Source: a virus
Taxonomy: Monodnaviria > Loebvirae > Hofneiviricota > Faserviricetes > Tubulavirales > Inoviridae
IMG/VR virus record: IMGVR_UViG_2563366830_000001
Span: 1 to 4,609 of that record
Direction: 5' to 3' (one strand)
DNA: 4,609 bases
In this document: piece after piece, positions 1-4,609 of the stretch
How the letters are laid out: each line of letters opens with the position of its first letter
Numbering within the stretch: the first letter of the stretch is position 1
The notes under the pieces: model-generated
What the model saw: only the letters and a program-made list of their open reading frames with translations
What the model was told of the DNA's origin: nothing
Databases searched by the model: none
Position numbers and translations under genes: made by a program

Positions 1-201
1 TCAATAAGTTGGAGTCATTACCCCAGAAAAGCACTTCGCATCACTCAGATATGATTTAACATAATATACATTATGCGCACCAATGGTAAGGATGGCAGAA
101 ACTGGTTGGAATCGTTGATTGACTTTATTTAATTCAAGCTCTGACCCTGCGAAAGCACATGAAGAAAATAGTAGCGTTAATGCGAGTAAAATCTTTTTCA
201 T
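1..201 (-). CDS. Small ORF with N-terminal signal peptide, partial (runs off window start); reads through dif, so possibly a phage-chromosome chimera
   Basis: Start ATG at 199-201 overlaps the pI stop as TAATG. N-terminus MKKILLALTLLFSSCAFA/GSEL has a basic n-region, hydrophobic core and AXA-type cleavage motif. Residues 41-50 (GAHNVYYVKS) are encoded by the dif 28-mer itself. Confidence 0.4.
   Translation of the reverse strand: MKKILLALTLLFSSCAFAGSELELNKVNQRFQPVSAILTIGAHNVYYVKSYLSDAKCFSGVMTPTY
54..81 (-). other. dif: dif site (XerC/XerD site-specific recombination target); probable prophage attachment junction
   Basis: Plus strand 54-81 reads ATTTAACATAATATACATTATGCGCACC. Its reverse complement, GGTGCGCATAA-TGTATA-TTATGTTAAAT, is a 28/28 match to the canonical E. 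coli dif 28-mer as I recall it (XerC arm, 6-bp central region, XerD arm). The XerC arm (71-81) faces the prophage genes; the XerD arm (54-64) faces the left flank. Confidence 0.85.
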
Positions 202-1226
202 TATTTTTTCCCCGTATAAAGCGTCACACGCTCACCATCAATAATTCCGCTCATCAACATCCCTTTATAATTAAAACTGGATGCAGGAACGGCACGCAAA
301 ACACCGGCACCGTTAACAAGAATCACAAACGCCCTGCCTTCACTGGTCATTCTCCCTGATATACGCCACTCGGTTGAAAGTGACGGTTCAGCTGGTTCTG
401 AGGGAGTATCTGGTGCAGGAGTAGCAGCGGAAGAACGAAACATGGCCGCATCACGTACATCTGTTGTAGCCAAATCTGGCGAGGGATCGCTTCGGCCAAA
501 CGTGCTGAAAAATGAGTAAATCAGCCAGCCTGACCCGATAAACATCAATGGAAAAAGCACAAGAAAGAACCTGACTTTGCCAGAATTCCAGATGCTCTGG
601 CGTTTATCTGTCTGCTTTTCATTACCGTTATTTCCTTCATAGCTTTTATAAAGTTCAAAAATATCAGGGTTATATTTATTGCGATAACTGGTGACGAGGT
701 TGCTTTTATAGATTTTGTGGCCTGAATATACGTCAATGCAGTAATGATTATTCAGGCCCAACGCTTTCAGCTTGCGCATCCGGTAAGTTGTTTCTATTTT
801 GTCTTTCAGAAAGCGAGCAATATTAGAAAGTGACTGATTTACAATAACCAAATCACAGCTAATACCCGTTTCAGGGTGCGTAAAATGACGATGTTCAGCA
901 ATAAATGATTTCTTCTCAGCCGTCATATCCTTATCGCTACCGAAGATTCGCCATGCTTCATCAATAACAATTAAATCACCAAACTGGCAAAAGCTCCCTT
1001 CCCCACCTTTAAAAGGAAAGAAATCTGCTTTAAGTACATCATCATTATCCACAACAATAATTTCTCCCGTTGCATCAGGATAACGTTCGGTGATTTTATC
1101 TTTTTGTAAACCATAAATGTTCGTCACAACTCTCCGGCCGCTGGTAAATGCAGGAATAATGACATTGCAAACGGCTTCATAACTTTTTCCTGAGCCGGGT
1201 ATGCCAATATATGCAGAAATAGCCAT
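201..1226 (-). CDS. Zot-family / filamentous phage assembly protein pI (P-loop NTPase)
   Basis: 341 aa. Walker A GIPGSGKS at residues 8-15 (nt 1182-1205); Walker B-like LIVIDEAW at residues 85-92; single predicted transmembrane helix (VRFFLVLFPLMFIGSGWLIYSFF, residues about 218-240) followed by a Pro/Ser/Thr/Ala-rich linker and a C-terminal domain. This is the architecture of the Zot/pI family. Start is 3 nt after the pVI-like stop. Confidence 0.9.
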   Translation of the reverse strand: MAISAYIGIPGSGKSYEAVCNVIIPAFTSGRRVVTNIYGLQKDKITERYPDATGEIIVVDNDDVLKADFFPFKGGEGSFCQFGDLIVIDEAWRIFGSDKDMTAEKKSFIAEHRHFTHPETGISCDLVIVNQSLSNIARFLKDKIETTYRMRKLKALGLNNHYCIDVYSGHKIYKSNLVTSYRNKYNPDIFELYKSYEGNNGNEKQTDKRQSIWNSGKVRFFLVLFPLMFIGSGWLIYSFFSTFGRSDPSPDLATTDVRDAAMFRSSAATPAPDTPSEPAEPSLSTEWRISGRMTSEGRAFVILVNGAGVLRAVPASSFNYKGMLMSGIIDGERVTLYTGKK

Positions 1227-1229
1227 AAC

Positions 1230-1517
1230 TCACCCTATAACAGGAATACGTCGAATAATAAAACGAGTAGCCATTGAGGAGATAATCATACTAATCCCCT
1301 GTGGTAATTTACTCAGGTTAATGAAGTACCAGAATCCGTCTGATAAATTGGCAAACAGCGATGAGAGATTGCTTGAATCTGGCAGTAACTCAACAAGGAT
1401 TTCAACGAAGCCCTGGACTACAAAATACAGCGCAAAGAATACGACGAATTTAATAATCAATGACCGGAATACAAAACCTAACAAAGTATTTAATGCACTA
1501 ATCAGAATCCCAAACAT
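1230..1517 (-). CDS. pVI-like minor coat protein (small hydrophobic virion protein)
   Basis: 95 aa, very hydrophobic N-terminal half with two predicted membrane segments; size, composition and position between the pIII-like and pI-like genes match gene VI of Ff phages. A strong Shine-Dalgarno AAGGAG (reverse complement of 1524-1529) sits 6 nt upstream of the ATG and overlaps the pIII-like stop (TAAGGAG). Confidence 0.6.
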   Translation of the reverse strand: MFGILISALNTLLGFVFRSLIIKFVVFFALYFVVQGFVEILVELLPDSSNLSSLFANLSDGFWYFINLSKLPQGISMIISSMATRFIIRRIPVIG

Positions 1518-1529
1518 AGTTGCACTCCT

Positions 1530-2984
1530 TTAGGCACTCAGAATAATACGGAGCGCAACAAATCCCCATATAATCAGAAATATGGTTTCTACGGCGCTTC
1601 TGTTCTGCTCAATTAACGGACAATGGGAGTCAATTCTGTACTGGTGATTAAACACGCTGAATTCAATAACGGGGCAGGATGCTGAACGAGAGCCGATGTT
1701 AAATTCGTTTGTAAAAGGCAACAAGTTAATAATTGGCGTTAAAATATCTCTTGCCGTTGGCGTTTCTTCAAGCTCAGGCTCTTTTACACCGGGATCTTCT
1801 CCCAAATCTATATTGCCATTATTTCCAGTGTCAGATCCTGAGTTGTTATTAATGGTAATATCAATATTGACGTCAGCCCCTGCACTGTCAGATACAGGTG
1901 AAAGCATATCTAATAACGTTGGAGATAGCCTAAGTTCCGACATCGCAGAAGTTACTTCAGCCGGTGAAACCTCTTTAAACGGTAAGCCGTTATAATCGGC
2001 ATTAACGGCAGCTTCAGACCACAGCTCGTTAATCATGTCGGCAAGAAGTGCTGGCGATACACTAACACTATCAAGATACTCCAGATAATCAATCATGGAC
2101 TCAATATTTCCGGCCTCCAGTACTTCCGTCATGGCTTTATATTTGGTATTGGTCCAGATAGTAAGCTCACTCTTTTCATCAATATCTTTTGCGGTGTAAT
2201 CCTCTTTTTCAGGAACGGCGCAAATCGTCGAATATCCACCATTTGACTGATTAGTCGTTTTACAAGGCGTGTTGTGATACTGATATTGCTTTCCTGCTGT
2301 TAAATAAGCAACGCTGTAATACATGGGAAGCCCTGCTACATTTTCATACATGGGAATACCTGCGGGAAATGAAGATGCGGCCGGGTTGCTATACAAGTGT
2401 GTAATCTCAGGTATTTCATAAAATGAGGAAGGATAAGTAAACTTATAATTCTGTTCAGTAAAGGATACATCTCCATTACTGTTGACAACTTTATTCGTCA
2501 CAGTGCGTTCAAAATTCGTTAGTGTTTCAGTATAAGTACGCGAGTTATAGTCATTAAGATAATTTCTGGCAATTTCAGTTGGATTATCACCATAGTAATA
2601 AATTAGCTCTTTCGAATCCTGATAATAATAAAGCGCATTATCTGGCGTGGAATATCCTGTTTCAACACCTACAACTGGAGAACCCGCATCCACATTATTA
2701 CGACTAACATGAAGGATTACCGGACTTAATTCCTGTGGTTCAAAATTAACGGTTATCGTCTTACTTTCACCACTTTGACCACTGTACGTTACTTCATATA
2801 AATTATCGGAAATCTTTTTACCGTTAGTCATTACCATTACCGAGCCGTCAGATGAACTCAAAGAAGACGGAACAAAAGATGATACAGCAGCAGCAATACC
2901 CGCCCACGTTGTGACCTTGCAAAAACTTTGACGGATTGCCGTCAATATAGAGATGTGTTGCCCGACCTTCGCCATCAGATCCAA
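1530..2984 (-). CDS. pIII-like adsorption / minor coat protein; true start codon uncertain
   Basis: 484 aa in the longest ATG-initiated frame. Gly/Ser/Asn/Asp-rich linker (NNNSGSDTGNNGNIDLGEDPG) between domains; C-terminal Cys-containing segment followed by a hydrophobic anchor (TIFLIIWGFVALRIILSA) as in gene III proteins; located immediately upstream of the pVI-like gene. The first ~45 residues are not a classical signal peptide, and a signal-like segment (KVTTWAGIAAAVSSFVPSSLS) is internal. Confidence 0.7.
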   Translation of the reverse strand: MDLMAKVGQHISILTAIRQSFCKVTTWAGIAAAVSSFVPSSLSSSDGSVMVMTNGKKISDNLYEVTYSGQSGESKTITVNFEPQELSPVILHVSRNNVDAGSPVVGVETGYSTPDNALYYYQDSKELIYYYGDNPTEIARNYLNDYNSRTYTETLTNFERTVTNKVVNSNGDVSFTEQNYKFTYPSSFYEIPEITHLYSNPAASSFPAGIPMYENVAGLPMYYSVAYLTAGKQYQYHNTPCKTTNQSNGGYSTICAVPEKEDYTAKDIDEKSELTIWTNTKYKAMTEVLEAGNIESMIDYLEYLDSVSVSPALLADMINELWSEAAVNADYNGLPFKEVSPAEVTSAMSELRLSPTLLDMLSPVSDSAGADVNIDITINNNSGSDTGNNGNIDLGEDPGVKEPELEETPTARDILTPIINLLPFTNEFNIGSRSASCPVIEFSVFNHQYRIDSHCPLIEQNRSAVETIFLIIWGFVALRIILSA

Positions 2985-3141: not shown

Positions 3142-3308
3142 GTATCGCCTCAGAGAACAATTTTGTGACCAGAAAGCCTGTCAAGAGCTTATTAGTACCA
3201 ATTCAGTCACACAAATGTACCACCCAAGATCTTACCTCTCAAGTGATTTTGTACTGGATAAGTGACATATTTGTTCTTTTGAAATGGAGCAAAAAAGTAG
3301 GATATAGA
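3142..3308. promoter_or_regulatory. Divergent intergenic control region between replication-initiator fragment and HTH regulator (putative promoters/operators)
   Basis: 167-bp non-coding gap flanked by divergently oriented start codons (3139-3141 minus, 3309-3311 plus). Contains repeated GTGAC/GTCAC-containing motifs (3165-3169, 3206-3210, 3262-3266; AAGTGA at 3241-3246 and 3260-3265). Individual -35/-10 elements could not be assigned confidently. Confidence 0.35.
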
Positions 3309-3761
3309 ATGAGCAACAACTTCAACAGTAATGGCTACCCGGAAGAAATGGCAGAAGACATAGACTTACAGCGGGCAGAAAGGATAAAAAAAGCGATCCT
3401 AAGCAAATTCACATACGAAAGGATGGAAGAACTGTCTGGCATCAACATTGGCACACTGAAACGGATCGCAAACGCACAGAGGGATGCGAAAATCAGTGAG
3501 CTGGAAAAAATTGCTGAAATCACTCAGACAGACATATTTGAACTGATTTTTGGCTCCAGTAGCAGTGATATCTACGATTCCAGCAAACGCTTCTTTGAGA
3601 CGAGAAGTAAAGATGCGGCTCAGGCGGCTCAATTCATCATCTACAATCTTCGTACCCTTGATGATGAGGACATCCTTTGTTTGGGGAGGGTTTCGAGTGC
3701 CTTGCAAACAGCAACAACATCAAGAAAATGGGATGAGCTTTTCGGGAAGAAGAAAGGCTGA
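3309..3761 (+). CDS. XRE-family helix-turn-helix transcriptional regulator, putative prophage repressor
   Basis: 150 aa from the ATG at 3309, which has a Shine-Dalgarno (TAGGA at 3298-3302) 6 nt upstream; the longer frame from 3165 has no such signal. Segment ...TYERMEELSGINIGTLKRIANAQRDAKISELEKIAEITQTDIFELIFG has the pattern of an XRE/Cro-CI-type HTH domain. It is divergent from the replication gene, as rstR is from rstA in CTXphi. Confidence 0.75.
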   Translation: MSNNFNSNGYPEEMAEDIDLQRAERIKKAILSKFTYERMEELSGINIGTLKRIANAQRDAKISELEKIAEITQTDIFELIFGSSSSDIYDSSKRFFETRSKDAAQAAQFIIYNLRTLDDEDILCLGRVSSALQTATTSRKWDELFGKKKG

Positions 3762-3806
3762 GTCTCAGAAATGAGACAAACGTGCAGTATTACCAACACT
3801 GCACGT
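3762..3806 (+). terminator. Two adjacent inverted repeats directly after the regulator stop codon; possible terminator and/or protein-binding site
   Basis: GTCTCA-gaaa-TGAGAC (3762-3777; 6-bp stem, 4-nt loop) and ACGTGCAGT-attaccaac-ACTGCACGT (3780-3806; 9-bp perfect stem, 9-nt loop). No T-run immediately follows the second stem (TTTTT only at 3821-3825), so it is not a textbook intrinsic terminator. Confidence 0.35.
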
Positions 3807-3845
3807 TCTGGATTGAGCGATTTTTAAACACCAGAAAAAGGGTAA

Positions 3846-4244
3846 ATGATGAACAAAACAGTGTATGTACCAAGCTACTTCCAGCCTATCTACAAAGAAG
3901 TAACCATCAAAGTTCCTACCGGAAACACAAAACGATTCCTGGGTCTCATCGACATTGAAGAAAAAATCCGAAAAAGAGAAGTTATTCAGGATGGCTGGTC
4001 TGATTGCCAGATTGACGGGGAAAGACTCAATGAAGATGTTGGTCGAGCCATTAATAAACTTAATCGGGAAGGGTATGAGGTTATTTCAATAACCCCTGCT
4101 ACCTCAGGAAGCTGGGCTTATAAATATAAACAAAACAGTATTCGTAATGGAAACGGTGATGGCAGTTATGGATATGGTTACGGTTATTCATACACCGAAG
4201 GCGTTATGATTCTGGCAAAGAAAATTGAGAAAGAGGACGTCTGA
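3846..4244 (+). CDS. Hypothetical soluble protein (132 aa) with C-terminal Gly/Tyr-rich repeat; first gene of a two-gene cassette
   Basis: Uninterrupted ORF with a purine-rich ribosome-binding site (AAGGG, 3837-3841) upstream of tandem ATGs (3846, 3849). No predicted transmembrane segment. The C-terminal half (GWSDCQIDGERLNEDVGRAINKLNREGYEVISITP...) may resemble a small DUF-type domain (DUF4177 is my unverified recollection). GNGDGSYGYGYGYSY at residues 102-116. Confidence 0.7.
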   Translation: MMNKTVYVPSYFQPIYKEVTIKVPTGNTKRFLGLIDIEEKIRKREVIQDGWSDCQIDGERLNEDVGRAINKLNREGYEVISITPATSGSWAYKYKQNSIRNGNGDGSYGYGYGYSYTEGVMILAKKIEKEDV

Positions 4245-4246
4245 TA

Positions 4247-4609
4247 ATGGATTTTATCCGTAAAACTTTGGGTGGATTAAAAGCAAGTTATTATATCCGT
4301 CACTTCGTTTTTGGTGCATTAATTTCAACTTTCTTTATTTACATGTCAATGCAAAATCCTGGAGGGGTGAAGGTTGAAAATATAATTTTCTTTTTTATCA
4401 ATGCGTTACTCTACCCTTACGCAAGATTTGTATATGAGCAAATCATTGGGTTCATCATGGGTGAAAATGTCTTTTTCATCAACGTCATAGTGATGCTAAC
4501 TGCCAAGATAATTACGATGTGTTTATGCTGGATATTTTCAGTATTCATAGCGCCAGTTGGATTGATATATCTCTACTATTATCATTCAAAAGCTGATAAA
4601 CAATTATAG
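4247..4609 (+). CDS. Small multi-pass membrane protein (120 aa); second gene of the cassette
   Basis: ATG at 4247 lies 2 nt after the upstream stop (TGATAATGG) with Shine-Dalgarno AAGAGGA (4231-4237). Three to four strongly hydrophobic segments (e.g. HFVFGALISTFFIYMSM, IIFFFINALLYPYARFVYEQIIGFIMG, VFFINVIVMLTAKIITMCLCWIFSVFIAPVGLIYLYYY). Stop codon TAG at 4607-4609. Confidence 0.7.
   Translation: MDFIRKTLGGLKASYYIRHFVFGALISTFFIYMSMQNPGGVKVENIIFFFINALLYPYARFVYEQIIGFIMGENVFFINVIVMLTAKIITMCLCWIFSVFIAPVGLIYLYYYHSKADKQL

Follow-up and report, generated by a model that had tools for sequence, protein, structure and literature searches.

A decaying CUS-1/YpfΦ-lineage prophage beside an exact chromosomal dif site in a lineage of Escherichia coli

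CUS-1, the filamentous prophage of Escherichia coli O18:K1:H7 reportedly described by Gonzalez et al. in 2002, and YpfΦ of Yersinia pestis, said to have been treated by Derbise in 2007 and Chouikha in 2010, are the described systems closest to the element studied here, and their integration at the chromosomal dif site has reportedly been in the literature since 2002-2005. Both are entered as integrating at dif (PMC2731167), both have attachment sites (attP) with the features required for direct integration of single-stranded DNA (ssDNA; PMC3089051), and both have been classed as CTX-type phages (PMC4246890). In CTXφ, the annealing of inverted sites within the (+) ssDNA unmasks attP(+), XerC carries out a single strand exchange, and replication resolves the product (PMC3089051). 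For YpfΦ, an intact dif regenerated at one end of the prophage, inverted XerC/XerD sites and tandem arrays of 2-4 copies have been described (PMC4266046). Here we analyse a stretch of 4,609 nucleotides (nt) recorded as a virus of the Inoviridae (IMG/VR record IMGVR_UViG_2563366830_000001; the whole stretch is called the window), which holds one copy of such a prophage and, at positions 54-81, a 28-bp dif site. Our reading, to which we give a probability of roughly 0.93, is that the strain has one functional chromosomal dif, at window 54-81, and that this site was rebuilt, at the prophage's dif-proximal end, when a phage of the CUS-1/YpfΦ lineage integrated by the CTXφ-type route with XerC as catalyst.

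The site itself is exact. The top strand of window 54-81 reads ATTTAACATAATATACATTATGCGCACC, and its reverse complement, GGTGCGCATAATGTATATTATGTTAAAT, resolves into GGTGCGCATAA-TGTATA-TTATGTTAAAT, that is, XerC and XerD arms of 11 bp each on either side of a 6-bp central region, all agreeing with the species consensus. A pattern search of the whole window matched the canonical E. coli dif on the minus strand at 28 of 28 positions, with no mismatch, and found no second site even when three mismatches were permitted; since none of 200 dinucleotide-preserving shuffles of the window contained a match, the 28-mer is not expected by chance. A first-pass annotation, made from the letters alone, had compared the site with the canonical sequence and placed the XerC arm toward the phage genes and the XerD arm toward the flank. 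Its orientation was right and so was its canonical sequence: a published dif table gives the identical 28-mer for E. coli K12 and also for Y. pestis CO92 (PMC2731167), and in MG1655 the 28-mer occupies NC_000913.3 1590750-1590777, with the yneL pseudogene on one side and hipA on the other, on the same strand as in the window. Of 5426 complete E. coli genomes, 4800 contain it together with three shared bases; the median is one place per genome, and no genome has more than two.

The surroundings agree with the chromosome terminus, where the same annotation had placed the window. The window is an exact substring of scaffold KE137256.1 (assembly GCA_000408725.1) and lies two single-nucleotide polymorphisms (SNPs) away from positions 2546470-2551078 of the E. 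coli MS 196-1 chromosome (CP146681.1), where ydeT, yneL' and IS1A precede the window, in that order, and a second prophage copy, hipA and hipB follow it. The neighbours of dif are thus those of K-12, ydeT/yneL to one side and hipA/hipB to the other; the flank next to the XerD arm is native, and dif falls at 49.7% of the MS 196-1 record. Terminus polarity was judged by the orientation of the FtsK-orienting polar sequences (KOPS), the available flanks being too short for GC skew; left of the locus the motifs, GGGNAGGG, lie on the plus strand and right of it on the minus strand, so that polarity converges on the locus, as expected at dif. The site is thus a single copy in the terminus, at the switch of KOPS polarity.

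One might suspect that the 28-mer is not the host dif at all but a phage-borne or fortuitous dif-like sequence, with the true dimer-resolution site elsewhere; mimicry of dif is indeed a property of phage attP sites, and the XerC arm of the window site would, on the evidence given below, be derived from the phage. In its central region, XerD arm and 31-nt flank, however, the site corresponds to K-12 dif, whereas the phage's own sites differ from dif. The sequence moreover occupies one place per genome in the 4800 genomes and is the sole exact site in the 28.6-kb MS 196-1 locus, just where KOPS polarity switches, and we consider the suspicion scarcely credible. Given its identity to the experimentally defined K-12 site, the window dif would be expected to bind XerC/XerD and to recombine under FtsK control, and it probably still serves chromosome dimer resolution despite the prophage remnant beside it.

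The integration junctions were compared among the 28.6-kb MS 196-1 locus (L001), the full-length relative SW070919 (L002), K-12 (L003) and strain 82.0311 (L016/L017). Besides the one exact dif, which is the window site, L001 contains two identical hybrids, GGTGCGCATAA-TGTACG-ACTCGTTATGT, in which the XerC arm is exact and the central region and XerD arm after it diverge. One lies between the two prophage copies (L001 16765-16792; window-equivalent 4765-4792), 156 nt past the window end, and the other next to hipA (L001 23545-23572); a hybrid of just this make-up had been predicted to lie beyond position 4609. SW070919, too, has a hybrid with an exact XerC arm, at L002 16881. From L001 23573, after the hipA-proximal hybrid, the sequence continues as aatataaaccaaggaag..., which is what trails dif in K-12, and the window dif is followed by aatggtaaggatggcag..., which is what trails the inter-copy hybrid; in K-12, which is free of the element, dif stands between the sequence of window 23-53 and the post-prophage sequence. 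An element-free strain had been expected to show window 1-53 as the flank of dif, and this turned out to be true of 23-53 only, positions 1-22 being the end of an IS1 element and not native flank. The exchange of flanks among the K-12 dif, the window dif and the hybrids means that the insertion point of the element is precisely dif, that one end now has an intact dif and the other a noncanonical hybrid, and that the crossover fell between the XerC arm and the point at which the central regions diverge.

A natural marker in strain 82.0311 (NZ_CP122454.1) locates the crossover directly. In this strain, the junction between copies shows GGTGCGTATAA as the XerC arm of the phage attP; the prophage-adjacent dif, GGTGCGTATAA-TGTATA-TTATGTTAAAT, consists of phage flank and the phage T, followed by chromosomal central region, XerD arm and flank; and the hipA-proximal hybrid has the chromosomal arm GGTGCGCATAA, with C and not T. 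From the placement of T and C it follows that the XerC arm of the prophage-adjacent dif is phage-derived, and the SNP puts the crossover at the XerC cleavage position, as an XerC-catalysed top-strand exchange at the border of arm and central region predicts. By extension, window 71-81 would be phage DNA that by chance is identical to the host arm. As an observation in its own right, the prophage-adjacent dif of 82.0311 (L016 1937-1964) reads GGTGCGTATAATGTATATTATGTTAAAT, with one mismatch in the XerC arm that comes from the phage attP, and no exact dif is present in the 14.6-kb locus L016, the part of that chromosome that was searched. The roughly 626 of the 5426 complete genomes in which the exact 28-mer was not found might include further dif sites rewritten by phages.

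The phage attP has the build of a CTX-type site. A further dif-like site, in inverted orientation, is found in the phage directly inside the hybrid, and on the phage coding strand, which is the minus strand of the window, attP reads GGTGCGCATAA-TGTACGACTCG-TTATGTTGAAAAGG...loop...CCTTTTTACACATAA-CGTCA-TTGTGCGAACC; the first of the two inverted dif-like sites is GGTGCGCATAA-TGTACGACTCG-TTATGTTGAAA and the second GGTTCGCACAA-TGACG-TTATGTGTAAA. Folded as ssDNA, the region (window-equivalent ~4700-4792, just outside the window) gives a forked hairpin of -27.2 kcal/mol, compared with -11.1 ± 2.2 kcal/mol for shuffled sequences (z = -7.2), in which the XerC arms are predicted to pair with each other, the XerD arms likewise, and the central region to bulge out. 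In four sequence variants, taken from Y. pestis as well as E. coli, the fold is kept at -27 to -31 kcal/mol. The first four central bases of attP, TGTA, are those of dif on the XerC side, so that two inverted dif-like sites, a forked hairpin in the (+) ssDNA and central homology on the XerC side, as in CTX-type attP sites, are all found together. That the minus strand of the window is the packaged (+) strand is suggested by analogy with Ff and CTXφ.

In the mechanism that we propose, the (+) ssDNA of the phage would fold the inverted dif-like pair into a forked hairpin, exposing an XerC arm, a bulged central region and an XerD arm; host XerC would then swap one pair of strands at the border of the XerC arm and the central region, and replication would resolve the resulting pseudo-Holliday junction. 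The product would carry, in order, the chromosomal flank, the XerD arm, TGTATA, a phage-derived XerC arm (completing the window dif) and the prophage or prophages, and at the far end the phage XerD' with its 11-nt spacer, the chromosomal XerC arm (a dead hybrid) and hipA. Read as a duplex with a 6-bp spacer, the hybrid has an XerD arm with 6 of 11 positions mismatched, and the good arm, TTATGTTGAAA, is reached only across an 11-nt spacer; with either of these, Xer-mediated excision would not be expected. Catalysis by XerC/XerD, an ssDNA substrate and irreversibility would all be in line with what is known from work on CTXφ and YpfΦ, as would independence of XerD catalysis, which belongs to the CTX type.

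The same junction layout, a regenerated dif and a hybrid with an exact XerC arm, would also arise by XerC exchange on a double-stranded attP, as in phages of the VGJφ type, whose double-stranded replicative form joins dif through a duplex attP, leaving two Xer-competent flanking sites and allowing reversible excision; the match of the first four attP central bases to dif would suit this route too. It calls, however, for a duplex attP with a normal central region and a usable XerD arm, and the hybrid offers neither: the arm at the 6-bp spacer is the badly mismatched one, and the 11-nt spacer in front of the good arm is incompatible with cooperative XerCD binding on duplex DNA. The inverted dif-like site and the strong hairpin are, moreover, the signature of the CTX type, and the published classification groups CUS-1Φ and YpfΦ with CTXφ and not with VGJφ (PMC4246890). 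We therefore hold entry by the VGJφ route to be highly improbable.

The first-pass annotation had cited CUS-1 and YpfΦ as analogies. It was correct about the type of integration, but the likeness goes further than that, and the element, by its nucleotide identity, is a member of their lineage: window 119-2911 (2793 bp, holding the 5' end of pIV, zot, pVI and pIII) is 99.3% identical to the tandem YpfΦ of Y. pestis NCTC5923 and 99.5% identical to the prophage of UTI89, a strain of the O18:K1:H7 type, giving 99.3-99.5% over 2.8 kb, and the Zot protein shares 99% of its amino acids with the NCTC5923 YpfΦ homologue. The morphogenesis module is thus near-identical to that of CUS-1/YpfΦ, and the gene order is theirs. 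Of the 5426 complete E. coli genomes, 110 contain the module, with two places per genome as the median; tandem copies are thus common among E. coli carriers. Arrays of at least two copies are usual for the CUS-1/YpfΦ family in E. coli as in Y. pestis (L001 12001-23572; L002 8001-24725; L004; L016/L017), and in MS 196-1 even copies without rep stand in tandem, so that the duplication either is older than the loss of rep or came about by host recombination.

At full length, in SW070919, the element measures 8849 bp and encodes a replication initiator (rep), a G5P ssDNA-binding protein, Coat_B-like, pIII, pVI, Zot and secretin proteins, a repressor and small open reading frames (ORFs). Neither the seven ORFs of the window nor the eight remaining ORFs of this relative gave a Pfam match to a recombinase or integrase, in agreement with the Prokaryotic Genome Annotation Pipeline (PGAP), and the lack of an element-encoded integrase, already noted for the window, therefore extends to the complete element. 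A megablast search with the 8849-bp relative gave no match in the INPHARED phage collection, from which CUS-1 and YpfΦ are themselves missing; Y. pestis NCTC5923 and UTI89 supplied the link to them. The anatomy of the locus and the position of the crossover can be read directly from the exact site, its flanks, the hybrids, the hairpin potential, the lineage, the lack of an integrase and the SNP-marked crossover.

Several points weigh against CTXφ-type entry as we describe it. The parts assigned to Xer and to ssDNA lean on homology to CTXφ and on the published analysis of YpfΦ and CUS-1, and the XerC-dependent scheme for YpfΦ is itself labelled "proposed"; superinfecting YpfΦ also favours the imperfect junction between copies, which the classical CTX model does not foresee (PMC4266046). 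The four attP hairpin variants are closely related and differ mostly by G·U-type or single-sided changes, so that support from covariation is weak. The window copy has no complete rep, and its present arrangement is silent on current mobility. Finally, the tandem duplication could stem from homologous recombination and not from a second integration.

Judged by its gene content, the window copy is a dead remnant that would no longer be able to replicate or assemble. As an element it spans 4711 bp, compared with 8849 bp at full length, and it falls short of the complete genome of ~8.7-8.8 kb and 13 ORFs, able to replicate and form virions, that characterises CUS-1/YpfΦ. Two deletions account for this: the first takes two small ORFs and the pIV secretin gene beyond its first 27 codons, and the second takes the pIII N-terminus (the first ~60 codons), the genes of the Coat_B-like major coat protein, an 83-residue membrane protein and G5P, and 273 of the 350 rep codons. 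It is because of the first deletion that dif lies so close to zot, with a gap of 119 nt to the end of the zot/pI ORF at 201 (the figure first given was ~120 bp), compared with ~2.2 kb in intact relatives. The earlier description of a Xer-exploiting filamentous prophage is thus sound for lineage and layout but too generous for this copy, which is non-viable, with rep truncated and ssb, coat and the pIII N-terminus missing, and in which the closeness of dif and zot is secondary.

The second deletion is present in both tandem copies of MS 196-1 and the first in the dif-proximal copy only; among the 5426 complete E. coli genomes, each of the two junctions occurs in MS 196-1 alone. The chimeric ORF across the first junction, by contrast, recurs in 79 blocks of an assembly collection, from independent NCBI drafts, human-gut metagenomes and SRA assemblies, and an assembly artefact behind the equal deletions was rejected on the strength of these 79 blocks and of the exact match of the window in KE137256.1. 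Some of the contigs have a single 4711-bp remnant between dif and hipA and others the remnant together with a copy bearing only the second deletion; two more, from SRR33932279 and SRR32147770, have further, different internal deletions (L013 7895-7900 and L014 8654-8690), giving, for example, a rep'-pVI fusion ORF. These extra losses indicate that decay is ongoing while dif, zot and the repressor/cargo side are kept, and the remnant is a locus in decay that one E. coli lineage passes on vertically.

Both deletions are exactly 2069 bp long, which makes the breakpoints mirror-symmetric on the 8849-bp circle (38+6969 = 2107+4900). The junctions share no more than a loose CGTTG/TGAC resemblance, judged not significant, and microhomology is limited to 0-1 nt; either coincidence or a structural mechanism might account for the symmetry. 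The dif-proximal copy might be a helper-dependent miniphage that, with the second-deletion copy already in place, inserted itself independently at the intact dif. Its 4711-bp genome keeps attP, the rep-repressor intergenic region, the repressor and the cargo; as a circle it would hold the complete attP hairpin, and the copy sits beside the intact dif, where a CTX-type secondary integration would insert, giving an array of the form dif-[a c e]-[a b c e]-hipA. Yet a helper with rep, coat and secretin genes is not present in the genomes that carry the 4711-bp copy, YpfΦ superinfection favours the junctions between copies (PMC4266046), and loss of segment b in situ from a tandem array is the simpler account of the same structure, the contigs L013 and L014 showing other in-situ deletions. 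A satellite-like mini-element of this sort, self-integrated at the regenerated dif with a since-lost helper, and with its symmetry reflecting a "slice" from a rod-like ssDNA, is thus very unlikely; were it true, the transverse loss of such a slice from the antiparallel ssDNA-G5P or virion form would be an undescribed route to miniphages.

The coordinates of the site, the junctions and the genes of the window copy are collected in Table 1.

Table 1. Features of the 4,609-nt window, in order of position (L001, MS 196-1 locus; L002, full-length relative SW070919)
Feature	Position	Strand	Match or remark
Chimeric read-through ORF, annotated 66-aa "hypothetical protein" WP_016248024.1	1..201	-	no Pfam/PHROG match
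IS1A right-end terminal inverted repeat	1..22		inverted repeat GGTAATGACTCCAACTTATTGA ends at L001 12022 = window 22; transposase coding sequence ends at L001 12007
Native XerD-side chromosomal flank	23..53		the 31 nt left of MG1655 dif save one SNP; database matches H2-H6 start aligning at 23
dif XerD-binding arm TTATGTTAAAT	54..64	-	chromosomal origin; toward flank
dif central region TGTATA	65..70	-	chromosomal origin; phage attP has TGTACG... at equivalent position
dif XerC-binding arm GGTGCGCATAA	71..81	-	toward phage genes; probable phage attP contribution, same sequence as chromosomal arm
First 37 nt of phage DNA by the attP XerC arm (segment a)	82..118	-	identical to post-hybrid L001 16793-16829, L002 8060-8096 and L002 16909-16945
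Deletion 1 junction	118..119		no microhomology; 2069 bp lost (L002 8097-10165)
pI/Zot-like assembly ATPase, intact, 341 aa	201..1226	-	Pfam Zot 2.2e-26; phrog_197 9e-94
pVI-like minor coat protein (DUF2523), intact	1230..1517	-	Pfam DUF2523 1.4e-19; phrog_974
pIII-like adsorption protein gene (puvA-type), 3' part	1530..2911	-	phrog_3942: residues 22-484 vs profile 90-546
Deletion 2 junction	2911		1 nt microhomology; 2069 bp lost (L002 12959-15027)
Replication initiator (G2P/RstA-like), first 77 codons	2911..3141	-	Pfam Phage_CRI, residues 1-81 of 232-position profile
Divergent rep/repressor intergenic region	3142..3308		position only
RstR-like helix-turn-helix repressor	3309..3761	+	phrog_3557 1.4e-68; weak HTH_3
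Perfect-stem hairpin, 13-14-bp stem	3778..3808		within 76-94-bp conserved island 3761-3852
Two attL-side cargo ORFs, 132 aa (3846-4244) and 120 aa (4247-4609)	3846..4609	+	phrog_15841 for the 132-aa ORF only

The ORF that reads across dif is almost certainly a chimeric artefact and not a real gene, being made up of a remnant of the pIV signal peptide (119-201), segment a, dif, the flank and the IS1 end. The pIII-like gene keeps ~460 of 520 codons, the start codon and the first ~60 codons of the full-length gene (L002 11577-13139) being gone; the rep fragment, whose N-terminus is 93% identical to that of UTI89, is continued out of frame by pIII sequence and is called a pseudogene by PGAP. By the example of CTXφ ig-2, the region between rep and the repressor presumably holds promoters, operators and the origin. 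The repressor shares only 40% of its amino acids with those of UTI89 and YpfΦ, which implies an immunity type different from that of CUS-1(UTI89)/YpfΦ. Downstream of it, the island at 3761-3852 is conserved at 86-93% between phages with unrelated flanking repressor and cargo modules, and could be a terminator, a boundary of module exchange or a cis-acting phage signal. The cargo ORFs gave no match in Pfam, NCBIfam or PADLOC and, by tblastn against L004 and L005, are absent from UTI89 CUS-1 and YpfΦ; the 120-residue product looks, by eye, hydrophobic and possibly membrane-spanning. Strain 82.0311 pairs the CUS-1 repressor with cargo ORFs like those of the window (~95% identity), and the two ORFs appear to be a mobile accessory module; modular variation on the attL side has been described for YpfΦ and CUS-1 (PMC4266046).

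On the chromosomal side, an IS1A copy (L001 11255-12022) takes the place of 213 bp of K-12 sequence between yneL and dif, its flanks mapping to L003 4506 and 4720, and no target duplication is evident. The IS1A end sits 31 bp from the XerD arm of dif, and the MS 196-1/window lineage evidently tolerates an insertion element so near to the site. The prophage itself contains three KOPS-like motifs of the sequence given above, at window 996 (-), 3683 (+) and 4066 (+), two of which have the orientation that, on the hipA side of dif, leads away from it; as the prophage is present in two copies, this makes four non-permissive motifs at most 11 kb from dif.

Overall, the value of our analyses lies mainly in annotation: the true dif of this E. 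coli lineage is fixed, a 66-residue ORF is exposed as an artefact, and the genes around the site are seen to belong to a dead CUS-1/YpfΦ remnant and not to an active Zot-carrying phage. The natural marker in 82.0311 indicates that integration by this phage family swaps the XerC arm of the host and so can mutate the host dif. The principle of XerC-arm replacement is already established for the integrative mobile elements of Vibrio that exploit Xer (IMEXs). It is likewise already known that CUS-1 and YpfΦ integrate at dif and have a CTX-type attP (PMC2731167, PMC3089051, PMC4246890, PMC4266046), and the new details are minor: the twin deletions, an IS1 element 31 bp from dif, a heteroimmune repressor/cargo module and a natural SNP marker of the crossover.

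Among the known systems, IMEXs of the VGJφ and TLCφ types likewise exploit XerCD and integrate at dif. Those of the VGJ type do so reversibly and through a duplex attP, in contrast to the inverted, CTX-type attP pair of the present lineage; those of the TLC type have no XerD arm and undergo an XerD-first exchange with the factor XafT, and in the ORFs scanned here, of the window and the full-length relative, no further Pfam families were found. With CTXφ of Vibrio cholerae, the lineage has in common the lack of an integrase, the inverted dif-like pair in the (+) ssDNA and, by analogy, probably the single XerC exchange; the likeness extends to the two ends of the prophage, one with a regenerated dif and one with a dead hybrid, to tandem arrays and to an RstR-like repressor divergent from rep. 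It differs from CTXφ in having no detectable nucleotide similarity to it (no megablast match in the phage collection), in the spacing of the inverted sites (~41 nt, compared with ~90 nt), in the absence of toxin cargo and in encoding its own pIV secretin. YpfΦ shares the tandem arrays, an attP with identical XerC arm, 11-nt spacer and XerD' arm, and a host dif with the identical 28-mer; its host and its repressor and cargo modules are different, and, unlike the remnant in the window, it is a complete phage that forms virions. CUS-1, as the UTI89 prophage, uses the same dif site by hipA and has the same gene order, attP hairpin architecture and regenerated dif as the window element, from which it is set apart by a repressor that is only 40% identical and by unrelated cargo on the attL side, the two 2069-bp deletions belonging to the window copy.

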